A DNA stretch of 14,415 nucleotides from a virus (taxonomy: Duplodnaviria > Heunggongvirae > Uroviricota > Caudoviricetes): the IMG/VR virus record IMGVR_UViG_2711768057_000001, one strand, 5' to 3'. Under the pieces are notes generated by a model that was not told the origin of the DNA, made no database searches, and saw nothing but the letters and a program-made list of their open reading frames with translations. Positions 40-14,415 of the stretch are shown in pieces (the stretch's first letter is position 1; the number at the start of each line of letters is the position of its first letter). Position numbers and translations under genes: made by a program.

Positions 40-402
40 GGGGCTGATTCTGGATTCGACGGGATTTGCGAAACCCAAGGTGCATGCCGAGGGGCGGTTG
101 GCCTCGTAAAAAGCCGCAAAAAATAGTCGCAAACGACGAAAACTACGCTTTAGCAGCTTAATAACCTGCTTAGAGCCCTCTCTCCCTAGCCTCCGCTCTT
201 AGGACGGGGATCAAGAGAGGTCAAACCCAAAAGAGATCGCGTGGAAGCCCTGCCTGGGGTTGAAGCGTTAAAACTTAATCAGGCTAGTTTGTTAGTGGCG
301 TGTCCGTCCGCAGCTGGCAAGCGAATGTAAAGACTGACTAAGCATGTAGTACCGAGGATGTAGGAATTTCGGACGCGGGTTCAACTCCCGCCAGCTCCAC
401 CA
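40..402 (+). ncRNA. ssrA: tmRNA (transfer-messenger RNA, SsrA), 363 nt
   Basis: Begins GGGGCTGATTCTGGATTCGAC and ends GGTTCAACTCCCGCCAGCTCCACCA (tRNA-Ala-like acceptor/T-arm with CCA). Contains the internal tag reading frame at 129-161. Matches my recollection of E. coli ssrA. Confidence 0.96.
129..161 (+). other. tmRNA tag-peptide reading frame encoding ANDENYALAA followed by a stop
   Basis: GCA AAC GAC GAA AAC TAC GCT TTA GCA GCT TAA read directly from the sequence; this is the canonical SsrA degradation tag. Confidence 0.9.
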
Positions 403-412
403 AATCATGATC
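385..412. repeat. attL: ssrA 3'-terminal core sequence, left junction of the integrated island
   Basis: CTCCCGCCAGCTCCACCAAATCATGATC recurs in imperfect form at 9323-9348 (CTCCGCCAGCTCCACCAATCATGATT). Confidence 0.75.
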
Positions 413-438
413 CGGATACGTCCGGTGAAGTACAGAAA

Positions 439-470
439 GCCCGCACAGCACAAGCCCTGCGGGCTTTTTT
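439..470 (+). terminator. Rho-independent terminator downstream of ssrA
   Basis: Stem GCCCGCA (439-445) paired with TGCGGGC (458-464), followed by TTTTTT (465-470). Confidence 0.7.
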
Positions 471-514
471 GTGTCTGTCGTTGTCCGAGAACATCCGGCT
501 AAATCCAGAGAAAA

Positions 515-543
515 TTGGTACACGTTTAGGTACACGCTATACT
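515..543 (+). promoter_or_regulatory. Candidate sigma70 promoter for int (TTGGTA, 17 nt spacer, TATACT), overlapped by GGTACACG direct repeats
   Basis: TTGGTA at 515-520 and TATACT at 538-543 with a 17 nt spacer. GGTACACG occurs at 517-524 and 529-536, with an inverted GTACCA at 560-565. Confidence 0.45.
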
Positions 544-585
544 GTGGTCCATTAAACATGTACCAATTATGGAAGGGATCCAGAT

Positions 586-1776
586 ATGGCGCGTATCACA
601 CGCCCCCTCACTAACAATGAAATCCTTAAAGCCAAACCCCGTGAAAAAGACTTCACCCTTCATGATGGTGATGGCTTGTTCTTGCTCGTCAAAACCACTG
701 GTAAAAAACTCTGGCGCTTCCGTTATCAACGACCGGGAAGCAGCAGCCGCACAAATTTGAGTCTCGGCTCATACCCTGCCCTTACACTCGCAGCAGCACG
801 TCAGATACGCGACCAGCACTTAATCACGCTTGCGCAAGGCATGGATCCACAACAGCAACAGGAGCAGGCGTCAGAACAACGCCAGATTGAGTTAGACAGC
901 ATTTTCTCAACAGTAGCTGCTAAATGGTTCCAGATTAAAAGCAGAAGTGTCACAGAGGATTATGCAAAGGATATTTGGCGTTCTTTGGATAAAGACGTGT
1001 TCCCGGCAATCGGTGCGATACCAGTTCAGGAGATTAAGGCCAGAACGATTGTTGAAGCATTGGAGCCAATAAAAGCACGTGGCGCATTAGAGACGGTTCG
1101 TCGCCTAGTCCAGCGTATTAACGAGATAATGATTTACGCGGTTAATACCGGTCTGATTGATGCAAATCCGGCATCAGGTGTTGGAATGGCATTTGAGAAA
1201 CCCAAAAAACAAAACATGCCCACGCTACGACCAGAAGAATTACCCAAGCTGATGCGTTCTCTGGTCATGTCAAATCTATCTGTTTCGACTCGCTGTCTTA
1301 TTGAGTGGCAGCTTCTGACCCTAGTGCGTCCTTCTGAGGCTTCTGGTGCTCGCTGGGTAGAGATCGATCTCGATGCCAAACTCTGGACGATTCCCGCCGA
1401 ACGAATGAAGGCTAAGCGTGAACACATTGTTCCTTTATCACCACAAGCATTAGAAATTCTGGATGTGATGAAACCTATCAGTGCTCATCGTGAGCATATT
1501 TTCCCGAGCAGGAATGATCCAAAGCACGCCATGAATAGTCAGACAGCAAATGCAGCGCTGAAACGTATTGGCTATGGAGGAAAACTCGTAGCCCATGGAT
1601 TACGCTCTATTGCCAGTACGGCCATGAATGAAGCTGGATTTAATGCTGATGTGATAGAGGCTGCTTTAGCCCATTCTGATAAAAATGAAGTAAGAAAAGC
1701 TTATAACCGCTCTACATATTTAGAACAACGTAAAGAGCTTATGTCATGGTGGGGAAGTCGAGTAAATAAAATATGA
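586..1776 (+). CDS. int: Tyrosine recombinase, P4-type integrase (396 aa)
   Basis: Full ORF with a GGAAGGG Shine-Dalgarno upstream. N-terminus MARITRPLTNNEILKAKPREKDFTLHDGDGLFLLV is typical of P4/CP4-57-type integrases, and the C-terminal catalytic region has HGLRS...Y. Position directly 3' of tmRNA fits. Confidence 0.9.
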   Translation: MARITRPLTNNEILKAKPREKDFTLHDGDGLFLLVKTTGKKLWRFRYQRPGSSSRTNLSLGSYPALTLAAARQIRDQHLITLAQGMDPQQQQEQASEQRQIELDSIFSTVAAKWFQIKSRSVTEDYAKDIWRSLDKDVFPAIGAIPVQEIKARTIVEALEPIKARGALETVRRLVQRINEIMIYAVNTGLIDANPASGVGMAFEKPKKQNMPTLRPEELPKLMRSLVMSNLSVSTRCLIEWQLLTLVRPSEASGARWVEIDLDAKLWTIPAERMKAKREHIVPLSPQALEILDVMKPISAHREHIFPSRNDPKHAMNSQTANAALKRIGYGGKLVAHGLRSIASTAMNEAGFNADVIEAALAHSDKNEVRKAYNRSTYLEQRKELMSWWGSRVNKI

Positions 1777-1782
1777 AAAAAC

Positions 1783-1807
1783 AGCATCGCCTTTAATGAC
1801 GATGCTG
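1783..1807 (-). terminator. Hairpin between the convergent int and helicase genes; likely terminator of the minus-strand defence operon
   Basis: CAGCATCG (1783-1790) pairs with CGATGCTG (1800-1807); an A-run at 1777-1781 supplies the T-tract on the minus strand. Confidence 0.5.
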
Positions 1808-1813
1808 CGTGTC

Positions 1814-3712
1814 TTACTGCATATCGAGGAAGAATCTTGATGCAGGATGATATTTATAATCCCCCCAAGGCATCATTCTTTTTTCTGGATAAGTAACAAA
1901 AATCCAACGCCGAGATCGTGTTATAGCTACGAAAGCATTATTTCTTTCTTCATCTAGCTCGACTTTGCTCTTAGCTCGATAATCTGGAAAAACCCCCTCA
2001 CACATACCGATAAGGAAAACTATATCTTTTTCAAGTCCTTTCATTGTATGAACAGTACTTAACATAATCCCATTATTTAAGGTATCATCATTAAGCTGAC
2101 CCAAAGCAAGTGCATTCCTAAATGAGGATAGATTATCACCGAGGCCTTTACGTTTGAATCGTGTCCACATGGATTGAAGCTGCTCTATATCTTTAATCCC
2201 TGTGGCAATATCATCTTCTTTAGCAGAATCTTTGGTATTTGCTCCTAAATTCACCAGTTCTGATTTAATATCTAAACAGAACTTCAAAATATTAGGTGTG
2301 TCTACAGACATATGATCAATATGTGCTAAAACCAAGCTAATTAAATCTTTATCTAGGTTAGATGATTTTTTTATGTCAGCATAGACTTTGCTAATATCGT
2401 AGGTAACATCTGATTCTGGATTTAATTCTAAACCGATTAATTTATACAATCTCTTCCCATCAACCCAATCCTTTGGATTAACCTTAACCCTTATAGCAAG
2501 ATCGACTATTTTCCCAATAAGAGAAACAGGCGATTCATTTCTATCACTACGCTTTAGGAAATAAGGTATATTTCTTTTTTTAAGCTCACTTTCCATAGCT
2601 TTAAAAACAAATCTATTTCTACCTATAACAACAATTTTAGAGCAATCAATATCGCCCTCAATTTCTGGATGTCTTTTTAAATTCAGTATATGTTGAATGC
2701 TATCACAAACCCATATAGCTTCAGATTCTTCATCTGGTAAAGCATTAAAAGATTTATAGCCATCAAGAGCAGCATTAACACCAACTTGGCTATTTGGTTT
2801 TAATTTATTAGCTAATTCAATCACTGCTTTCGAAGATCTATAGTTCTCGTTTAAACAATAAATTTTAGGAGTAAAATCTTTCACGAATGATTTAATAAAA
2901 TAATCTGATGATGAACCATTAAAACCATAGATCATCTGGTCACTATCACCAACCATCATGACATCTTTTATTTTATCACCGCAGAGAACCTTTATAAATT
3001 CGTACTGAGCTCTGTTTAAGTCTTGAGCTTCATCAACAAATAAAGCAACGTATTTTTTTTGATATATTCTTGCTACTGAATCTTGATTTAATAGGATTTT
3101 ATGTGCATATAAAAGTATATCATCAAAATCCACACCACCACTTTCCAATAAAGCAGACTGATAATCTTGATAAATATTCCAAATACGCGGATTGGAACTG
3201 AATTTTATCTTTACTTCATCTTCAGTTAAAAGCTCTCTTTTAATAATAGAGAATACATTAAGATATTGACTTATAATTTTTTCACGATTGCGCTTTTCTC
3301 TAACGTCCTCAACATCTAAGTATTCATCAATATTAACCCCCTGTTCTCTTAAGGAATGTAGAAAAACCTCCATCCGATCTTGGTCACGTTCAAATATATG
3401 TAATTCTTTTGGTAACCCAATAGTATACCCATAACTTTCGAGTACCCTTTGTGCAACAGAATGAATCGTAGCAATCCAAATCCTATCACGATTTTCTGAG
3501 CCATCATCTAACCTTTCAAGCATTTCATCTGCTGCTTTATTTGTGAATGTTAAAGCAACCACACTTCCTCTAGCAGAGTTATTGAGAATGAACCTAACCC
3601 TCTCAGTAAGCACTCTTGTTTTACCAGACCCTGCAGATGCAAGAACTTGTATAGCCCCTCCCATAGGAGCTTTAACAACTTCAATTTGAGATTGTGATAA
3701 ATTATCAATCAT
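1814..3712 (-). CDS. gajB: UvrD/PcrA/Rep-like superfamily 1 helicase (632 aa), Gabija GajB-like
   Basis: SF1 helicase motifs read from the translation: I AGSGKT, Ia TFTNKAADEM, II VDEAQD, III VGDSDQMIYGF, IV NYRSS, V TVHTMKGLEKDIVF, VI VAITRSRR. Start ATG overlaps the upstream OLD-like stop (ATGA at 3709-3712). Confidence 0.8.
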   Translation of the reverse strand: MIDNLSQSQIEVVKAPMGGAIQVLASAGSGKTRVLTERVRFILNNSARGSVVALTFTNKAADEMLERLDDGSENRDRIWIATIHSVAQRVLESYGYTIGLPKELHIFERDQDRMEVFLHSLREQGVNIDEYLDVEDVREKRNREKIISQYLNVFSIIKRELLTEDEVKIKFSSNPRIWNIYQDYQSALLESGGVDFDDILLYAHKILLNQDSVARIYQKKYVALFVDEAQDLNRAQYEFIKVLCGDKIKDVMMVGDSDQMIYGFNGSSSDYFIKSFVKDFTPKIYCLNENYRSSKAVIELANKLKPNSQVGVNAALDGYKSFNALPDEESEAIWVCDSIQHILNLKRHPEIEGDIDCSKIVVIGRNRFVFKAMESELKKRNIPYFLKRSDRNESPVSLIGKIVDLAIRVKVNPKDWVDGKRLYKLIGLELNPESDVTYDISKVYADIKKSSNLDKDLISLVLAHIDHMSVDTPNILKFCLDIKSELVNLGANTKDSAKEDDIATGIKDIEQLQSMWTRFKRKGLGDNLSSFRNALALGQLNDDTLNNGIMLSTVHTMKGLEKDIVFLIGMCEGVFPDYRAKSKVELDEERNNAFVAITRSRRWIFVTYPEKRMMPWGDYKYHPASRFFLDMQ

Positions 3713-5484
3713 AGCTCAAGCCATCCCCTAACTTTATTAAATGCAATAATAACAGATTCCGGAAGTAATTCCTCAATTCTCTTTCCATTTGCATTCTGTG
3801 CTAGAATCACCCCTAAATACCCTGCATAACTAGCTTTTGAGTCACGCATTTTTTCAATTATAGCACTATCTTGTAAAGCCTCTATTTCTCTTTTCTTGGC
3901 ATCTCGATACCGTTCATTAGGACTAGCTTTGGTTTCACTTAACACTAATGATTCAATTATTTCCTCACGAATATTCAACTCGTTGTATAACTCAGCTTCA
4001 ATATCATTTGTTTCTTTGAGGAACTCTAAGGAGAAACAATCAGGATTCAATACGAGGCCATCTTCACGAACTAAACGTGCTACCTGACGGTTTATCTCAC
4101 CATGAGTATCACCATCATTATCACTAATAATACAGACAGGGATACCTAAATTACTTGCAAGTTTAATGAATGGTGGGTAATTTTTACCACTGACACTTAC
4201 ACAGTTAACTCCAACACTGAACATCGTCCTACCGAAATACAATTCAAACATGGATGGTATTAATTGTTCTTCTGTAACACCCTCACATAAAATTAAGGCT
4301 CGAGAGAAAAGCAACTCACCACGGGTTAACATTATCTCCCTTTTTAATGCATTTTTTTCATCATGTTCAATTCTTTTCTTCAGACAATTTACTGTTACTC
4401 CATCACCTTTCTTTATGAATGATCTTATATCTTCTATCTCAGCCATTGCGCTCAGGTATGGTGAATGAGTACTCAGTATAATTTGTCCCTGAGATGATGA
4501 TAACTGTTTAAACAAGGTTCTTTGTGCATTGGGATGTAGATGCGCTTCTGGCTCTTCAGCTCCAACAATTGGATGTAGCGCCTTATTTTCGAGCTCATGC
4601 CGCTCATGCATAAAGCTTAAAAACGATTGAACTGTAAGCATTGAAGCCCAACTTCTCGTCCCCGTGCCATGATATTCCATTGAAAATGAATGGTTTTCTT
4701 CATCTCCGAAATGTACTGTAAATTGCTTTGATAGATCTCGGATTTTTTTAGGGAAAGGAGTTATTTCTGTGTGGCTTGATCCTAGAAATGATTGGTTTAA
4801 CCCTTGAAGTGAATTTTTTAAGCTTTGAAGCGGCTCACTTCTACTCACTGCGGTTTCATTTATTGAACTTATCATTTCTTCAAGTGCAGTAACATCTTCA
4901 TCTTCATATTTAATATATGATAAGACCTTCCCTATATATGAGCTTTTATCTTTAAGCTCATGATGTATATCCCTCTGAGCCTCAATACAAATATAGGGGA
5001 TTGCATCAACTTTTGTTCTTACCTTTCTTCTCTCGTTGACAACAATGTCTTTCCATCCCTCAAACTCCCCCCATTCATTCAAATAATAACGTTGTGTATT
5101 AAACCCACCTTTTATCTCATCTGGCTGAACTTTTGTACGAATAGCCACAAACTCATGTCCATTTGCATCTACTGCAATATTATCACCGAAAACATCAATC
5201 CATTTTTCGTCAAACTCTTCTGTTTTATTACAATGTTCATCCGTAGGTATTATTTTTAAGTCAACGATAACTTCATTAACTTTTAATCCAGAACTATCTA
5301 TATGAAGATCTTCATCACTAAAGTAACGTTGGTAATCACCTAAAGCTAGTTGCAACGATTTTAGGAAAGATGTTTTCCCCGCATTGTTTGTACCTAACAA
5401 AACGGCAATACGTCCTAGCTCAACCTCAATTTCCTTTATACCTCTAAAACCTGAAATCCTAACAGAATTTATAAGAATTGACAT
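3709..5484 (-). CDS. gajA: OLD-family ATP-dependent nuclease (N-terminal ABC-type ATPase plus C-terminal TOPRIM; 591 aa), Gabija GajA-like
   Basis: Walker A GTNNAGKTS, Walker B-like IVGAEEPEAHLHP, H-loop STHSP, and TOPRIM motifs LILCEGVTEEQ and ISDNDGD. AGGAGG Shine-Dalgarno upstream. Paired in an operon with a UvrD-like helicase, the class 2 OLD/Gabija arrangement. Confidence 0.8.
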   Translation of the reverse strand: MSILINSVRISGFRGIKEIEVELGRIAVLLGTNNAGKTSFLKSLQLALGDYQRYFSDEDLHIDSSGLKVNEVIVDLKIIPTDEHCNKTEEFDEKWIDVFGDNIAVDANGHEFVAIRTKVQPDEIKGGFNTQRYYLNEWGEFEGWKDIVVNERRKVRTKVDAIPYICIEAQRDIHHELKDKSSYIGKVLSYIKYEDEDVTALEEMISSINETAVSRSEPLQSLKNSLQGLNQSFLGSSHTEITPFPKKIRDLSKQFTVHFGDEENHSFSMEYHGTGTRSWASMLTVQSFLSFMHERHELENKALHPIVGAEEPEAHLHPNAQRTLFKQLSSSQGQIILSTHSPYLSAMAEIEDIRSFIKKGDGVTVNCLKKRIEHDEKNALKREIMLTRGELLFSRALILCEGVTEEQLIPSMFELYFGRTMFSVGVNCVSVSGKNYPPFIKLASNLGIPVCIISDNDGDTHGEINRQVARLVREDGLVLNPDCFSLEFLKETNDIEAELYNELNIREEIIESLVLSETKASPNERYRDAKKREIEALQDSAIIEKMRDSKASYAGYLGVILAQNANGKRIEELLPESVIIAFNKVRGWLEL

Positions 5485-5601
5485 ATATTCATTCCCTCCT
5501 TGATTTTATGACATATACATTCCGAATAAATGTAATAATTCTGTTATCCAGATTATCATTTGCGGAAAATAAAATATAGTATATCCCAACCCTGCCGCGC
5601 A

Positions 5602-5620
5602 ATGCTCTCCCCGCCACGCC
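5602..5620 (-). other. cos-like 19-mer resembling the P2/P4 cohesive end
   Basis: Minus strand reads GGCGTGGCGGGGAGAGCAT, 16 of 19 matches to the P2/P4 cos sequence GGCGAGGCGGGGAAAGCAC as I recall it. It sits between psu and the cargo, as in P4-like elements. Confidence 0.5.
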
Positions 5621-5793
5621 TGCCCGCTTAAGGGGCCGCTTTTAATGCAGGTGCAAAGGTAGATTCAGGCCGCGCCGCGACTGGCGCTGGCAGGGAGTAC
5701 AGGGGTGGGAAAACGCATGCAAAACCATGCACCTTATGGATGCATGGCTTTTTTCGGGAAAAATAGCGGAATTTCCGGGGATGTTTTTGCGTG

Positions 5794-6360
5794 CTACCGT
5801 GCGGCCAGTTCTGCACGCCGGCGGGTATAAATCATGTTCTGTACAGGGGTGAATTTTTCACGATTATCATCCCGCGAAGGCGCGTCAGGCCTGTATCCGA
5901 TGGCCGTTAAAATGTCGTTATCCTGTGCAGAATAATTAATTTCATTTCCTGCGGCCAGCCAGACGGAAAGAGCTTCTCGCAGGTAATCTACTGAACGGTC
6001 AAGCGCACGGTTTTTTATCATCTCAGGCTGGTTCTTAATCCCCATCAGCTCCGGTGCCAGTGCGGCGGCCAGCTCTGCGCCGTCCTGCTGCATAAAATCA
6101 TGCAGCCGGTTACGAATGCTGATGCGCTGCACCTCTTCATGCGAGAAAATGTAGCGACCGGCGGCCTGATTAACTTCCCATTTTTTTATGTCAATCAGGT
6201 CGCGCTGCGACTGTAATCCGCGGGAACCTGATGCGTTGTCATCCAGCAATAATTCCTGATATTCCTGCACTGCGGCGGCCAGTTCGGCTTTACGGTTCAG
6301 CCACGCGGTTTTGTTCGTCTGACAGGCTTCATAGGCCTGCTGTAAGGTCAGGGTGGTCAC
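5794..6360 (-). CDS. psu: Psu-like polarity suppression / capsid decoration protein (188 aa)
   Basis: Translation MTTLTLQQAYEACQTNKTAWLNRKAELAAA...KWEVNQAAGRYI...FTPVQNMIY resembles P4 Psu as recalled. GTG start with AGGAGA Shine-Dalgarno 8 nt upstream. Confidence 0.8.
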   Translation of the reverse strand: MTTLTLQQAYEACQTNKTAWLNRKAELAAAVQEYQELLLDDNASGSRGLQSQRDLIDIKKWEVNQAAGRYIFSHEEVQRISIRNRLHDFMQQDGAELAAALAPELMGIKNQPEMIKNRALDRSVDYLREALSVWLAAGNEINYSAQDNDILTAIGYRPDAPSRDDNREKFTPVQNMIYTRRRAELAAR

Positions 6361-6376
6361 GGGTTGTCTCTCCTGA

Positions 6377-6622
6377 TTAGTGGCGGAACGGCGAGCTGTA
6401 GCAATCTTTTACCCGGCGAGGTGCTGCGGGTATTGTCGGCACCGGCGCGGGTTTCTCATCGATGACCGGAGAACGTATCACTTCAAAGATGGACTCATGC
6501 GTTTTGAATGTCGCCGAGCAGTGCACATTCTGGCACTGCAGGTAACTCTCTTTGACGCTCTCGGACATATAGCGGCTGGTGCGGACGTGAGCCGCCGTGC
6601 GGCAGAAAGGGCAGCGCATCAT
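6377..6622 (-). CDS. Ogr/Delta-family zinc-finger late transcription activator (81 aa, single domain)
   Basis: CPFC...C(x)nC zinc-finger pattern (MMRCPFCRTAAHVRTSRYMSESVKESYLQCQNVHCSATF), similar to P2 Ogr. Start overlaps the sid stop (ATGA at 6619-6622). Confidence 0.8.
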   Translation of the reverse strand: MMRCPFCRTAAHVRTSRYMSESVKESYLQCQNVHCSATFKTHESIFEVIRSPVIDEKPAPVPTIPAAPRRVKDCYSSPFRH

Positions 6623-7356
6623 GACAGTAGCCCCCGTGCTTTCAGGTCGGCTTCACGTTCCCGCATTTTTTCCTGCCAGACTTTCCGCTGAACGGGCGTG
6701 GCCGCAACGTCATGCTCCATATGCGGCAGCGTGGAGGCCGACAGCCCTGTTTTAAACAGCACCGGTTCATCGGTCAGACGGATATTGCAGCCCTTTACGG
6801 CCTGTTCAAGCCACGCTTTCACCTGCTGCATTACAACTTTTTCCGGTTCGGTATATCCCTGATGGCCTGTGGTATTGGCTAGCGGGTTATTCAGAACCAG
6901 TATGTTGAGTTTCATTGCCCTGACCAGCGCGCTACAGGTGTCACGCAGGGCAACATCAAGCTCATGCTCTGCATACTGGCTGAGGACGCTGTGATGTGCC
7001 TGACGATACGCTCTGGCCGTCCGGTCACACGCTCCTTTAAGGCTGTCCAGCTCAAAAGACAGAACCTCAGCCATATTGTCACATTCCTGCGCCAGTTCCC
7101 GCCGTGCCACGCGCGTCAGATGGCGTTGTTTCAGCTCGCCGGTAACGACAGCACCACCGGCACGAAAGGCGGCGCGCCATGCGCCGGAATCATTGTCATT
7201 TTCCTGCTCCAGTTCCTTTTTTTGTGCTTTCACCTGGCTGACGGCCGCCGTGGTTTCATCCATACGGCTGGCATTGGCGAGATGCGCCGAGCGGGCAGTC
7301 TCAAGGCGTTCCATTGCAGGTTTAAGGTAGTCGGGAATAACAGCGGTCTGAGTCAT
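6619..7356 (-). CDS. sid: Sid-like capsid size determination (external scaffold) protein, about 245 aa
   Basis: Translation MTQTAVIPDYLKPAMERLETARSAHLANASRMDETTAAV...ARGLLS resembles P4 Sid as recalled. I place the start at the internal ATG at 7356 (AGGAGA Shine-Dalgarno 6 nt upstream), not the ORF-track start at 7422. Confidence 0.8.
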   Translation of the reverse strand: MTQTAVIPDYLKPAMERLETARSAHLANASRMDETTAAVSQVKAQKKELEQENDNDSGAWRAAFRAGGAVVTGELKQRHLTRVARRELAQECDNMAEVLSFELDSLKGACDRTARAYRQAHHSVLSQYAEHELDVALRDTCSALVRAMKLNILVLNNPLANTTGHQGYTEPEKVVMQQVKAWLEQAVKGCNIRLTDEPVLFKTGLSASTLPHMEHDVAATPVQRKVWQEKMREREADLKARGLLS

Positions 7357-7428
7357 GTCAGGTCTCCTCTTCATTTCAATCTGAGGAGATTCTGCCGCGC
7401 CAGACACAACAACACGATTCATTGCCGT

Positions 7429-7446
7429 TGTGGCAAAAATGGCACA
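7429..7446. promoter_or_regulatory. TGT-N12-ACA dyad, candidate Ogr/Delta activator site of the late sid promoter
   Basis: TGTGGCAAAAATGGCACA lies about 75-90 bp upstream of the sid ATG on the minus strand; TGT-N12-ACA is the known recognition pattern of P2/P4 late promoters. Confidence 0.55.
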
Positions 7447-7533
7447 AACAGACCTTAAAACCCGGCTGGCCAGAGAAAGGTCTCAGGAAAACCTTACTCA
7501 CTGTTTGTTTTTTTACTAATAACTATTCACTAC

Positions 7534-7627
7534 TGTTCACCTTGAGAAAAAAGATAAGTAATACAGTTAATTAAAGGGTGAACAGTTGAAGGTCTGACTG
7601 TTCACCGTCTGTTCACCACTGTTCACC
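7534..7627. repeat. Iteron cluster: four direct copies of TGTTCACC (three at about 10 bp phasing) plus one inverted copy
   Basis: Direct copies at 7534-7541, 7599-7606, 7610-7617 and 7620-7627; inverted GGTGAACA at 7577-7584. The octamer is identical to the P4 type I iteron bound by alpha protein, as I recall it. Confidence 0.6.
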
Positions 7628-7709
7628 CTTCTGTTTTTCTCTGCCGATACCTTTTAGACTTTATTTCGATTAAAAATCGAAATATATAACTAAAGGAAAT
7701 AGAAATTGC

Positions 7710-7763
7710 TGCATTGTAATGCAGTGATTTGCATCTGTTTGCCAGCGTTTGCCTTTGTTTGCC
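7710..7763. promoter_or_regulatory. Palindrome TGCATT-GT-AATGCA followed by three helically phased GTTTGCC repeats; candidate operator upstream of vis
   Basis: Palindrome at 7710-7723; GTTTGCC at 7737-7743, 7747-7753 and 7757-7763, exactly 10 bp apart. Confidence 0.4.
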
Positions 7764-7892
7764 ATAGCGAAAAGTCAATGTTTGTTTCCATGAAAATCTC
7801 ACATGACCTGAGGAAAAATATAGACATAATAAGGAGCTACCCGAAGCCGGGCGGACACGACCGGCACAGTATGGACTTTATGAGGTAGCCCG

Positions 7893-8159
7893 ATGCACAC
7901 TGCTTTTTCTTCCCCGTCTTCTGCCCCTGCCGCGCCACTGATACCGGTCTCTGATGCCGTTCAGGAGCGATTTATCCGCCTGCCTGAAGTGATGCATCTG
8001 TGCGGCCTGTCACGGTCAACCATTTACGACCTCATCAGCCGGGAAGCCTTCCCGAAACAAATCTCCCTCGGTGGAAAAAACGTGGCGTGGGCGCACTCAG
8101 AAATCATGGCATGGATGACTGACCGCATTGCCGAACGTAACCGGGGTTATGACGCATGA
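7893..8159 (+). CDS. vis: AlpA/Vis-family helix-turn-helix regulator (88 aa)
   Basis: [48 protein letters not shown] matches the AlpA-family pattern (RLPEV...G.S..TIY......FP......V.W...EI..W). Position divergent from sid corresponds to P4 vis (orf88). Confidence 0.7.
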
Positions 8160-8194
8160 TGGTGACCATTCAGCAAACAGCCCCTTTTTCTGGC

Positions 8195-8224
8195 TTGCTT
8201 CCCTTCGCCGTTTCCAGGTATAGT
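8195..8224 (+). promoter_or_regulatory. Candidate sigma70 promoter (TTGCTT, 18 nt spacer, TATAGT), P4 PLE-like early promoter
   Basis: Hexamers at 8195-8200 and 8219-8224, immediately upstream of the seqA-like element. Confidence 0.35.
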
Positions 8225-8253
8225 TTTATCGCTGTCGCAAAATCGGCAGCCGG

Positions 8254-8279
8254 GCGTAGGAACCCGTGTAATTCACAGG
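8254..8279 (+). promoter_or_regulatory. seqA-like element (GCGTAGGAAC ... ATTCACAGG), upstream target of the immunity RNA
   Basis: Direct repeat of the element at 8461-8501 and complementary to 8416-8436. Confidence 0.5.
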
Positions 8280-8286
8280 CGACAAC

Positions 8287-8309
8287 AGACGCGCCATGCG
8301 TCTTTTTTT
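8287..8309 (+). terminator. Intrinsic terminator hairpin with a T7 tract inside the early leader
   Basis: AGACGC, loop GCCAT, GCGTCT, then TTTTTTT (8303-8309). Confidence 0.55.
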
Positions 8310-8384
8310 ACGTCGTTGCTCAGGCACACCCATTTTTCGGGCTGTGGTGCTTATCCCATAGCCCCTGTCAGATAATGGTGGTCC

Positions 8385-8440
8385 GGGCGGGGCAGCCTTC
8401 GGGCTGGCCGGTATTCTGTGAAGCCGGTATTCCTACCCCC
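8385..8440 (+). ncRNA. Candidate P4 CI-like immunity RNA core (seqB plus a UUCG-tetraloop hairpin); boundaries approximate
   Basis: Hairpin CAGCC-TTCG-GGCTG at 8393-8406. The 8416-8436 segment (CTGTGAAGCCGGTATTCCTAC) is the reverse complement, in bipartite form, of GTAGGAA and TTCACAG in the seqA and seqC repeats. Confidence 0.4.
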
Positions 8441-8460
8441 GTTCGGGTCACCACCCATGA

Positions 8461-8501
8461 GCGTAGGAACTCCGGTGGTGGCAATAACCGCTATTCACAG
8501 G
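8461..8501 (+). promoter_or_regulatory. seqC-like element overlapping the ribosome-binding site of the first early ORF
   Basis: GCGTAGGAAC at 8461-8470 and ATTCACAGG at 8493-8501; the Shine-Dalgarno AGGAGG at 8499-8504 overlaps it. Confidence 0.5.
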
Positions 8502-8512
8502 AGGTTGCCCTT

Positions 8513-8707
8513 ATGGCTACGACCCTCACCCCGTCACACCCGCAGTTTGTTTTTGTGTTTGCCGCCGTTCGTCGCGCCGACCGTAAACTCCGCATCTGTA
8601 TGCTTCGTACCGTTGCCGGTGATGAACACGCCGCACGTCTTTCCCTCGTTCGCGATTACGTCCTCTCGTTTGCTGGCCGTCTGCCGGTTGCGGAGGTGCG
8701 CGCATGA
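8513..8707 (+). CDS. Small early-operon protein (64 aa), hypothetical; positionally kil-like
   Basis: Internal ATG at 8513 with AGGAGG Shine-Dalgarno 9 nt upstream. The upstream 119 codons of the ORF-track call (8156..8707) cover the structured RNA region and are not credible coding. Stop overlaps the next start (ATGA). Confidence 0.55.
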
Positions 8708-8931
8708 GACACTCCACCATTACCGCCCGAGACCTCGAATGTCTGGAGCATATGCGCAACGTCGGCCAGCTCGTCGGCGACCTGATGCAGGTGCAGGACT
8801 GCGCGACCGTTAGGCGTGACCCTGCGCAGCAGTTACAGCTCACCTCCGTGATTTACCTCATGACCGCCCAGCTAGACAGCGTGGTCGAGCGCTGCAATCA
8901 GCACTGGCTGACCGGGGAGGGTAATGTATGA
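8704..8931 (+). CDS. Small early-operon protein (75 aa), hypothetical
   Basis: GGAGGT Shine-Dalgarno 6 nt upstream; ATGA overlaps at both ends indicate translational coupling. Confidence 0.5.
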
Positions 8932-9248
8932 AAAAGCCATTACCACCCGTATTACGTGCCGCGCTGTATCGTCGCGCCGTGGCCTGTGCATGGCTAACCC
9001 TGTGCGAACGTCAGCACCGCTATCCGCAACTCACCCTCGATGCACTCGAAAGCGCCATTGCCGCCGAGCTGGAGGGCTTCTACCTGCGCCAGCATGGCGA
9101 GGAAAAAGGCCGTCAGATTGCCTGTGCACTGCTGGAAGATTTAATGGAAGCTGGGCCACTCAAGGCCGCGCCCTCACTGTCCTTTCTCGGGCTCGCGGTG
9201 ATGGATGAACTTTGCGCCCGTCATATCACCGCACCGGTACTGCACTGA
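8928..9248 (+). CDS. Small early-operon protein (106 aa), hypothetical
   Basis: GGGGAGGG Shine-Dalgarno upstream; start overlaps the previous stop (ATGA). Last gene before attR. Confidence 0.55.
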
Positions 9249-9322
9249 GGGAGAAAATAACAATGAAAATGAATGTACGGAAAAATCCTTTATATTTAAT
9301 ACATTGAGAAATTTATTCAGAC

Positions 9323-9348
9323 TCCGCCAGCTCCACCAATCATGATTG
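9323..9348. repeat. attR: imperfect direct repeat of the ssrA 3' end, right junction of the island
   Basis: CTCCGCCAGCTCCACCAATCATGATT versus attL CTCCCGCCAGCTCCACCAAATCATGATC; the two copies differ by two single-base indels and one terminal substitution. Confidence 0.7.
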
Positions 9349-9498: not shown

Positions 9499-12400
9499 TC
9501 AGAACGACCAGTTCACACCAGCTACCCCGTTCCACGGGGATTCCACACCGGCACCATGGCTATACCCCACCCCAAGATGCCCGCTTAACGTACTGCTGAA
9601 TGAGGCTTTAATACCTGCCTGGTATATTCCACGTCTGCCCGACAAATCATTGACGAAATTACCGTCACTATTCACTTTCACCCGGTTATCATCGACAAAT
9701 TCTTTGCGCACAGCCGCCTTCAGCCACGGCTCAACTTCCATACCGTTCCCCAGACGCATGTTGTAACTCAGCGTTGCACCCAGTTCACGATATAAACTGC
9801 GGGTATCGACTGATTTCGATTCCATGCCATTGGATAAATGATATTCAGGGTTATCAGCGGTGAACCCCCGTTAACGATGCATACGGCGTCAGGTTCCAGT
9901 TACCATCGGTAAATCGCATCCCGGTTTCAATGTGACCGCCCAGCCCGTTGCTGCGATAACTGCCGTTGGCGGCTCCACCGCTGCCAACCGTGGAGTCGCG
10001 AGCTTCGGTACCTGCTAATACCAATAAATTACCGCCATTTTCCAGCAACATATTGGTCGCTAAATTGCCGGAAATGGAAAAAGTGCCGTACTGGTGAGTA
10101 CCGCTGATTTCAATACCGTTAGCCGTGCTCGTCTGGAGAGCGGCACCGCTGTTCTGGACGATATCTGTCGCTTTGCCATTATCGTTAACTGTCAGCGTAC
10201 CGCCTTCATTGATCTTTGTTTTTATTGCCTCTCCGTTAGCTGAAACTGTTTGTATTCCGCCGTCGTTAATCGTTGTCTCATTCGCCACCCCCTCGACGAT
10301 TTGTTCGCCGCCGGTGAGCGTCGTGCCTGTCGCAGTGGCTTTTGTTTTGACGATCTCCCGTCCGCCCGTATTGACCTGTGTTTTGTCAGAAGAGGTGTCT
10401 GACTCCATGGTTAACACGCCGCCATTTGCCAGCAGGATATTGTTCGCCGCACCCTGCTCGATGCTGAACGCGACGCCATCCGCGCGTGTTCCTGTGACCC
10501 GCGTCGCCCTGGTGGTTGCAACCAAAGCGTCCTGGCTACTCTGCTGTATCCCCGTTGCGCTGCCTTTCTCCCGCACATCGAGTGTGCCGCCGTCATTAAG
10601 CACCGAGTTTTCAGCCAGACCGCCCTCATTAACTACCTGTGAACACCCATTAATAATGGAACCTTCCGCTGTCCCGTTTGCCATAATTTGTTGTAGGCCA
10701 GAGACGATATCGGTATTGATTGCCTTACCATAATTCTGAACGGTTTGCGTGCCACCATTGATGTGTGTTTTCTCTGTTGACCCACCATCAACAATTTGTT
10801 CACCACTTTCGATATTTGCCTCAGTGGCTAATCCATATACCGTTTGCTTGCCACCTTTGATATTTGCTTTATCAGAAGTGGCACTGGCATATATTGTTTG
10901 GGTGCCAGCACTATTGAGTACAGTGCCAACATCTTTTCCATAAACATCCATTTTGCCGTTGGCATTAATAATCGTATCAACTGCCCGGGAACCAGTGACG
11001 ACTGTTAATGAGCCAGCGTTTTCCAGCACTACATTTTTAGCTTCTGAATTCCTGATGTAGAAAGCATCACCATAACTGTTGGTTCCTTCGATAAGGGTTC
11101 CGGAAGTTGTGGAAGCAATTAATGCGCCGCCGGATTGTTGCTCAACATGCTTAGCCTCACCACCGTCCTGAACCTCCAGAACGCCACCATTATTAAGTCT
11201 GGTGGTATCTGTTTTAGCCTCCTTCTGGACAATCAGCTTACCGCCAGCATCAACGGTAGTATTTTTCGCCGAGGTTTTAGCCACTACCGTCAGTTCGCCG
11301 GTATTTTCCAGCACAACATAATTAGCCTCCCCTCCGGTAATAGTGAAGTGAGAGAGCTTGTTGTATCCTTCAATATCAGTCCCTGCGCCCGTGTTGGCAA
11401 CTAAAGCACTGCCCGTCTCCTGGTTAACCCCATGTGCAATACCACCGGTATAGACAATCAGCGAGCCTCCGGCGCTAATATTGCTGCCAGTTGCCGTACC
11501 ATCTTTCTCAACAACCTGCCGGCTCCCGGAGGATATAATTGTCGTGTCAGCTTTCCCGCCGCTCTTGATATTTTGCGTTCCGCCGTTGATATTGGTACCC
11601 GTGGCAATACCATGATTATTAATATTCTGTGTACCACCATTGATTATGGTATTGGTCGCGTTTCCGGTAACATCCATTACCCCGCCGTTATCTATTCGGG
11701 TCGCATCAGCTTTAGCATTCGTTAAAACTGACATTGTTCCTTTATCTTTAATAATCGTCTTGTTTGCCGAACCATATGCGTTTATGTCTAAATGACCACC
11801 GTTTTCCAGCAACACATTGTCTGCCACGTGATTGTGGATGGAGAATGCACCTTCACTATTCGTACCGCTCACCGTCGTACCGTTAGTGTTTGTTTTTAAA
11901 ATTGCACCATCGTGCTGGGTAACATTTGTTGCCGTACCACCACTAACATCAAGCACGCCACCGGAATAAACTTCAATAACATCCGAGGAGCTGGTGTAAT
12001 CAACAATTTGCGTACCACCAGAATAGATCTGAGTATTTTTGCCGTTGACTTATTATTCAGAGACTGAGTTCCACCTTCAATCATCGTGTCCAGCGCATGG
12101 CTTTCATATACTCTTTGCTCACCGCCATTTTTAATGGTGGTTGTTCCTACTGTGCTCTGTTCAACATACTGTCGTCCACCATTTATGATTGTGTTCGTTG
12201 CAATACTTCCTTGCGTGATGTCCTGATAACCGGACTTATTTATCGTTGTACCATCAACATGCCCCTGAGTTGTTACTTTCTGCCCTCCACCATCAATGAT
12301 GGTTCCATTCGCAGTCCCCCCACTTATGTGTGAATTACCACCCTTAATTGTCGTTCCATTGCTGATACCACCTGTATAAACGTCCTGATTGCCACTGTCG

Positions 12401-12768
12401 ATTATCGTACCGGTGGAAATGCCCCCGTCATGAATTGTCTGTCTTCCTCCGTTAATGGTTGTATTATTAGCCTGCCCCACAAAATTGTTATGACTTCCTA
12501 CATCTTGATATCCACCCGATTCAATAAGACTTCCATTAGATACCCCGCCATGAACATTCTGCTGGCCATGGTTGATAATATGAGTGTTATTTGTTGTACC
12601 TCGTTCATCTACTCTTTGGCTGCCATCTACAGTCTCATCGTTTACCACACCAATAACATCAGGAGTGAAGGCCGTCATCCCAGGCGGGGCATATATCAAG
12701 GCAGATATCAATAAGGAAAGTACTGAGCGGCGACAATAATGGGGACTGGTCCTGTTCATAAATTTCAT
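9499..12768 (-). pseudogene. ypjA: ypjA-like autotransporter adhesin split over three reading frames, with a short C-terminal beta-domain
   Basis: N-terminal fragment has a signal peptide (MKFMNRTSPHYCRRSVLSLLISALIYAPPGMTA); a 700 aa repetitive passenger region follows; the C-terminal fragment ends ...GVESPWNGVAGVNWSF, the autotransporter terminal signature. The three ORFs (11896..12888, 9854..11956, 9499..9825) are contiguous but in different frames. Confidence 0.7.
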
Positions 12769-13139: not shown

Positions 13140-13290
13140 GCATTCGTCCCCCCATTGTTGGGCAAATATAGATTGGGCCAGAGCACGAAAGTTAATACCA
13201 CGTTTGCACAGCTCCTCCAACAGCACGACAAGATGCCACATACTGCGCCCCAGTCGGTTCGGTTTACAGACTACCCGTGCGTCCACCGCC
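13140..13290 (-). pseudogene. Serine recombinase (Pin/Hin/Gin-type invertase) remnant; approximate extent
   Basis: ORF 13029..13286 contains VVCKPNRLGRSMWHLVVLLEELCKRGINFRAL, matching the conserved invertase motif (VVWKLDRLGRS...L...EL...GI.FRSL). The catalytic N-terminus and the C-terminal HTH are absent. Confidence 0.4.
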
Positions 13291-13671
13291 GATAATGTCC
13301 TGAGCAGTTTTTTCAGTCCGGACCTCCTGCCACGGTTTTACGTTGAAGAGGTAACCCTGAGCACGCAGTTCATCAGTCAGGCGTGGTGTACCGTAACCCT
13401 ATTATTGATGGGTAAGATCAAAAAAACTTTCAGGCAGCTAAGGAAAGTTGAACCAGACATTAGAATAAATATTTCAACCAATTACAGCACCAATTCAGAC
13501 ACCGCCAGCTCAACAAATAAATCAAGGGGTTACGTGAAAGCGTAGCCCCTTTTTCTTTGGTAGTGGCAGCAAAATGGTTGTAGTGTAAAAAATAATCCCG
13601 TTTAATCAATCAATAATACATATTGTTTCAATCTACGTTATTATCTCTTTGTAAAAATAGCCATTTATTAA

Positions 13672-14415
13672 TCATTGAAAACTGCTTTTAGAACTTGATA
13701 CAACGGGACTAGTCACAACAGGACTATTCTCAACGGGATCATCCTCAGAGGAACTATCATCAAAGTCATCATCCATAAATAAAATATCATCGAATGGTGC
13801 CACGCCCGTGATGAGTTTTATTTTATTATTACGATCAGTCAAGACTCCACTTAAACCGTTTTCGCTCACAGGTTTTAATGATTTTTCATTACTCTTGTTG
13901 TAAGCAGGCGCATTAAAAATACACGGAGTATCAAGATCAAACAATGACGTTCCCCAGTTCACATATTGAATATCATAGTTACTGAAGTTCTGTCCAGAAA
14001 AGAAGCATCCCTTAAAATCCAATCCACCTAAATTATATAAACCATCCTCTTCTTTTTGGAGAGCAATGTTAATTTTGGCTATCTCCCGGACATCATCGCC
14101 ATTTTTATATTTGAATACCGTTTCAAGATTTTCCCCACACAGTTTGACTTCTGGAAATAATTTGAAATCAAAGCCTATATTATTATGTATCAACGTAGAT
14201 GAACAAAAGATGGAGAAAGCTTGCAGTGCTGAATTATAGCTTTCGATTTTATCCTGAGGCTGCGCTCTTGGTAAAAACTCATAGCAACATTCATAAAAAT
14301 TAAGTAGAAACTCTGAAGACCTTCCATTTTTATCAAATAATATCCCCTTGAACTCATTCACAAACGCATCTTTTTTTTCTTGAATATCTATGGGGTGTTC
14401 CTTTGACTCTGACAA
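13672..14415 (-). CDS. Hypothetical protein, 5' end truncated by the window edge (at least 247 aa), AT-rich, acidic Ser/Val/Pro-rich C-terminus
   Basis: Open frame from the window edge to the stop at 13672. No domain I can recognise; composition suggests horizontally acquired DNA. Confidence 0.5.
   Translation of the reverse strand: MSESKEHPIDIQEKKDAFVNEFKGILFDKNGRSSEFLLNFYECCYEFLPRAQPQDKIESYNSALQAFSIFCSSTLIHNNIGFDFKLFPEVKLCGENLETVFKYKNGDDVREIAKINIALQKEEDGLYNLGGLDFKGCFFSGQNFSNYDIQYVNWGTSLFDLDTPCIFNAPAYNKSNEKSLKPVSENGLSGVLTDRNNKIKLITGVAPFDDILFMDDDFDDSSSEDDPVENSPVVTSPVVSSSKSSFQ

Follow-up and report, generated by a model that had tools for sequence, protein, structure and literature searches.

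Stepwise inherited mutations have very probably turned a ypjA/ehaD autotransporter allele of Escherichia coli into a non-functional remnant

The ypjA/ehaD gene in the window (the whole 14,415-nt stretch of DNA that was analysed) is very probably a non-functional remnant of a classical (type Va) AIDA-I-type autotransporter, produced by stepwise inherited mutations. It carries an in-frame deletion and two single-base indels, each of the latter in a short homopolymer tract (Table 1). The preliminary description of this locus, made from the sequence alone, had left three options open for the frameshifts, namely pseudogenisation, phase variation and sequencing error. A survey of 5,426 complete E. 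coli genomes favours the first of these, and the allele appears to have lost its function and to have decayed neutrally afterwards.

Table 1 Features of the window, with positions counted from its first nucleotide
Feature	Position	Strand	Remarks
attL	388-403		ssrA 3' end
P4-like satellite prophage	403-9339		integrated at ssrA 3' end
Integrase	586-1776
GajB	1814-3712	-	PADLOC E = 2.8e-272
GajA	3709-5484	-	PADLOC E = 1.4e-245
psu	5794-6360
ogr/delta	6377-6622
Icd-like gene	8156-8707
isrK	8231-8308		Rfam
C4 antisense RNA	8371-8458		Rfam
DUF5375 gene	8928-9248
attR	9324..9339	+	16-bp exact direct repeat CCGCCAGCTCCACCAA; boundary between mobile element and ypjA locus
ypjA/ehaD pseudogene	9499..12759	-	3,261 bp, versus 4,581 bp in K-12 (1,526 aa)
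Piece 3	9499..9825	-	108-codon ATG-started ORF; RefSeq WP_000444409.1
Piece 2	9854..12049 (open 12049-9857)	-	731-codon open stretch, second frame
G4 to G5	9865..9869	-	+1 frameshift within remaining beta-domain; C5 on + strand
Deletion junction	9982..9984	-	1,320 bp, in frame; 3-bp GCA microhomology
Piece 1	11896..12759 (open 12759-11899)	-	287 codons; stop codon 11898-11896
A6 to A5	12036..12040	-	-1 frameshift after native residue 241; T5 on + strand
Hypothetical protein WP_000927517.1	12824-12943	-	39 codons; directly upstream of ypjA
pinH-like recombinase remnant	13167-13334		both ends missing
ypjCB	13672-14415		frameshifted; O145:H28 RM12761 has intact 449-aa ORF

The whole 14.4-kb window comes from an E. 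coli chromosome, and it differs from strain KSC9 (NZ_CP018323.1) by one mismatch overall, at position 12083. Its order is ssrA (tmRNA, 40-402), a P4-like satellite prophage, ypjA, a pinH remnant and ypjCB. K-12 has the same neighbourhood, but its ssrA site holds the cryptic prophage CP4-57, and homology of the window to K-12 and to strain W2-5 restarts at 9315/9316. The flanks of ypjA are collinear with K-12 on either side at 95-98% identity, and the ypjA DNA, which lies after the ssrA island and before pinH/ypjCB, is about 96-98% identical to K-12 ypjA. The window gene and K-12 YpjA (b2647) occupy the same orthologous locus, which extends from the ssrA-integrated island to pinH/ypjCB/ileY. 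K-12 YpjA is the EhaD of EHEC O157:H7, and its AIDA repeats are shared by the window gene. YpjA/EhaD is an AIDA-I-type, biofilm-promoting autotransporter (PMC9289746, PMC12547504), placed in Group 4 in the classification of PMC9289746. The earlier identification of the gene as ypjA-like is thus borne out by its orthologous position, its AIDA repeats and an identity of ~95-98% to K-12 ypjA. The interval first assigned to it, 9499-12768, is correct at the stop end (the stop codon lies at 9501-9499 on the minus strand), but 12768 belongs to an alternative in-frame ATG, three codons upstream of the K-12-equivalent ATG at 12759.

To locate the lesions, the gene was compared nucleotide by nucleotide with K-12 ypjA, and the O145:H28 RM12761 gene served as a second intact allele. 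Unlike K-12 YpjA, the window gene contains two frameshifts and no single ORF: no uninterrupted reading frame covers the signal peptide, passenger and barrel, and the first stop occurs after 287 codons. The gene was initially described as split into three frames. There are indeed three pieces, but they occupy only two frames, because the +1 shift undoes the -1 shift and the 1,320 missing bases make up whole codons, so that pieces 1 and 3 share a common frame. Piece 1 aligns with K-12 from residue 1 and includes an N-terminal signal-like sequence; the sole product predicted from the native start would comprise 241 native residues followed by 46 out-of-frame residues, 287 aa in all. Piece 2 carries native residues 242-926, the AIDA-repeat passenger, together with the first 39 residues past the deletion junction, and it ends three codons beyond the G5 tract. 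Piece 3, named 'autotransporter outer membrane beta-barrel domain-containing protein' in RefSeq, lies in a frame that is open over 123 codons (9870-9502). It represents only the final part of the barrel, covering profile positions 164-254 of 255 in PF03797, or about one third. When both single-base indels are repaired (one A inserted, one G removed), a single 1,086-codon ORF without an internal stop is obtained, indicating that there are exactly three lesions. The repaired protein is ~95% identical in amino acid sequence to K-12 YpjA at residues 1-930 and 96% identical at residues 1367-1526. Close to the divergent 5' end the alignment has two further paired gaps (+1/-1), which were rejected as noise since they cancel within a few bases.

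Both frameshifts are located in homopolymer tracts. The first break had been placed at the T5 run at 12036-12040, which is exact: K-12 (gene nt 720-725) and O145:H28 RM12761 have A6 here on the coding strand. For the second break, the C5 run was the right tract, as the intact alleles have G4, but the position proposed for it, 9866-9870, is one base too high. Alignments to K-12 and RM12761 also agree with the earlier view that each break is a single-base indel. Runs are scarce in this gene. In K-12 ypjA, the A6 tract and one other are the only runs that reach 6 bases, and runs of at least 4 make up just 6.1% of the sequence. That both indels nevertheless fall in runs is what replication slippage would be expected to produce, and this origin fits both of them.

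The third lesion, an internal deletion, had been suspected from the short C-terminal region. Alignment to K-12 ypjA confirms it and sizes it at 1,320 bp, corresponding to the 440 residues K927-S1366 of K-12. The protein junction reads ...DSTVG926 / S1367GGAANGSY..., and the GCA crossover sits in an imperfect match of 11/13 nt (GCAAGGGTGGGGC vs GCAGCGGTGGAGC). These features fit a deletion by microhomology-mediated illegitimate recombination in a repetitive gene. Exactly 160 native residues remain past the junction, in agreement with the preliminary estimate of about 160, which had been judged too few for a 12-strand barrel. Indeed, this 160-residue tail covers only positions 107-254 of 255 in the Pfam beta-domain PF03797 and only residues 126-284 of 284 in the BrkA translocator structure 3QQ2. 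A complete translocator, that is, a linker helix and a full 12-strand barrel with PF03797 matched end to end, is absent from the window gene. K-12 YpjA contains two C-terminal Pfam domains, Pertactin at residues 1057-1179 and Autotransporter beta-domain at 1265-1504. In the repaired window protein the AIDA repeats are kept (PF16168, E = 1.4e-141, 10 matched stretches), and no match to the Pertactin-like domain PF03212 was found; that domain falls inside the deleted residues 927-1366. The deletion thus takes the final repeats of the passenger, the pertactin-like domain (assumed here to be the autochaperone region of YpjA), the Pro-rich linker and about 40-42% of the barrel model from its start; the 440 residues present in K-12 and absent from the window include the first ~100 of the beta-domain.

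Among the 5,426 complete genomes, the deletion junction was matched in one piece by a 201-nt probe in 323 (about 6%), and the G5 tract was found in 319 with an exact 85-mer. The junction combined with G4 was found in none of the 5,426 genomes using a 190-nt probe, all best matches having G5; in this genome collection the deletion and G5 are in complete linkage. The A tract occurs in two states, A5 in 142 genomes (exact 85-mer) and A6 with identical flanks in 117; roughly half of the deleted-allele carriers are in the A6 state. No genome of the 5,426 has A7 on the same flanks. Nine carriers were examined singly; all nine have the junction and G5, with A5 in four and A6 in five. Across the 10.2-kb right flank the four A5 strains differ from one another by 0-1 mismatches. 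Two A6 strains aligned over the full 10.2 kb show 90-91 mismatches to the A5 flank, two more show 60-61 over about 3.1 kb, and the right flank of the fifth, W2-5, aligned across 1.8 kb only, too little to be informative. In this sample of four A5 and five A6 genomes, A5 occurs on a single flanking haplotype, so that it behaves like a mutation inherited from one event, and it postdates the deletion/G5 allele. The same deleted allele has suffered other damage as well: the IAI1 reference genome has ISSen4 inserted in it, strain 47-1826 has an internal stop, and IS66 and IS3 have inserted in further strains. The recurrence of the lesions, the lack of scatter in tract length, the A5 haplotype and the incompleteness of the repaired protein together point to true pseudogenisation.

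These observations suggest a decay in two steps. In the first, the in-frame 1,320-bp deletion, probably microhomology-mediated, would have removed residues 927-1366, and a +1 slip from G4 to G5 would have broken the residual barrel; we treat these two events as one step with no order assigned within it. In the second and later step, a -1 slip in the A6 tract would have put the sequence past residue 241 out of frame in a sub-lineage. Translation from the native start would then stop at 287 residues, making a surface-exposed adhesin impossible. In other sub-lineages, IS insertions or a nonsense mutation may have acted as secondary damage, and the finding of differing secondary damage in carriers of one allele is what would be expected of neutral decay after a first inactivation. 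We know of no type Va passenger that reaches the surface without its own translocator. Since the 287-aa product and the A6-state product both lack a translocator, neither passenger should be able to reach the surface.

It might be argued that a fragment has kept or gained a function, either the N-terminal passenger (287 aa, or 968 aa in A6 strains) or the 108-aa remnant. The start codon and promoter-proximal part are intact, and the A6 carriers keep a 968-codon ORF (965 native and 3 aberrant residues). Moreover, the pseudogene sequence is 99.8-100% identical among sampled carriers whose flanks differ by ~1%. However, such identity would be just as likely in an allele that spread recently, whether by descent or by recombination, and the long ORF has been disrupted repeatedly and independently, by the A5 frameshift, by IS elements and by a stop codon. 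A type Va passenger without a translocator cannot get to the surface, and the 108-aa piece represents no more than about a third of the barrel model. We therefore regard a retained or new function as very improbable. There is a similarly slight chance that the 968-aa passenger, with its signal-like sequence and no translocator, might be expressed and active in A6 strains. If so, the product could be a periplasmic protein or a passenger exported via the paralogous YcgV barrel, and the A6/A5 polymorphism would reflect selected inactivation instead of neutral decay.

Alternatively, the tracts might switch the adhesin ON and OFF through slipped-strand phase variation, as the indels both fall in homopolymer runs and the A tract exists in two population states on otherwise identical flanks. 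Homopolymer tracts of contingency loci are usually about 7 nt or more, whereas both tracts measure 5 nt in the window, and the intact alleles have 6 nt (A) and 4 nt (G). Nor is there scatter in length: A7 is missing from the 5,426 genomes, G5 is invariant on the deleted allele, and A5 goes with a single flanking haplotype in the sampled genomes (four A5, five A6). Restoring both tracts would still leave the protein without 440 residues, the pertactin-like domain and 42% of the barrel model, so that no tract state corresponds to ON. IS insertions and a nonsense mutation have, in addition, piled up on the same allele. The shortness of the tracts, the lack of length scatter and the lack of any state restoring a complete translocator effectively exclude phase variation, which we consider extremely unlikely.

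Homopolymer sequencing or assembly errors in an otherwise intact gene are likewise effectively excluded, with a probability that is practically negligible: such miscalls are frequent on some long-read platforms, but A5 recurs in 142 and G5 in 319 independent complete genomes, produced by many laboratories over many years and including IAI1; the 1,320-bp deletion, which 323 genomes share, is no homopolymer artefact and alone leaves the gene defective; and the 108-aa remnant has a common RefSeq accession across strains.

Stepwise pseudogenisation agrees with existing annotation. The allele is already known at that level, from RefSeq/PGAP: NCBI PGAP/RefSeq flags it as a pseudogene ('frameshifted; incomplete; missing C-terminus' in KSC9), and WP_000444409.1 is listed separately in many genomes, including IAI1. 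In IAI1, W2-5, O121 RM8352, strain 165 and KSC9, the junction, the G5 tract and the 108-aa WP_000444409.1 are identical to those of the window. A6 is kept in IAI1, W2-5 and about 117 other genomes, in contrast to A5 in the window, and IAI1, unlike the window, has the extra ISSen4 insertion. A literature search for a ypjA pseudogene or truncation returned only general adhesin surveys and reviews, among which we found no description of the allele. Judging from the sequence, the strain would be unable to make the YpjA/EhaD adhesin, and 'adhesiome' presence/absence screens that score partial ypjA matches would accordingly overcall it. Beyond annotation the allele is of little significance; it offers a worked example of stepwise pseudogene decay and implies no new biology.

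We note that short probes cross-match ypjA and ycgV. YcgV is a paralogous autotransporter at a separate chromosomal locus, beside minCDE, and its beta-domain DNA in strain LHM10-1 matches an 84-nt probe around the G tract exactly. LHM10-1 was considered as a close intact allele and rejected, because the gene matched there is the ycgV/minCDE paralogue, which is frameshifted too. PGAP names this paralogue, at the ycgV locus (minCDE-ymgJ), 'ypjA'. An origin of the 3' remnant by gene conversion from ycgV was also considered and rejected, given that the downstream flank runs collinear to its K-12 ypjA counterpart; what remains is ypjA and no copy of ycgV.

Several other features of the locus are worth recording. 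Position 12083 is A in the window and G in KSC9, W2-5 and K-12, making it a private SNP of the window; the coding-strand codon becomes ATG in place of ACG (Thr226Met), within the already dead ypjA. Antisense ORFs on the plus strand within ypjA, such as 10125-10733 (202 codons), face a repetitive gene, and there are no apparent grounds for regarding them as genes. Upstream of ypjA, the position of WP_000927517.1 is kept across strains, and this protein has no match in Pfam. Further to the right, ygaQ is likewise a pseudogene in related genomes, and the entire ssrA-ileY interval looks like a degrading island.

In the satellite prophage, the primase/helicase (alpha) gene has been nearly all deleted (window ~9262-9280); its first ~5 codons (ATGAAAATGAATGTA) are left and are fused to the final ~60 bp of the element. 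A related element in MSB1_9D has a 2,334-bp primase gene at the corresponding place. Owing to this loss, the satellite is probably replication-defective. It also carries a complete Gabija anti-phage system (1814-5484), placed between the integrase and psu, an interval that we take to be a known defence hotspot of P4-like satellites.
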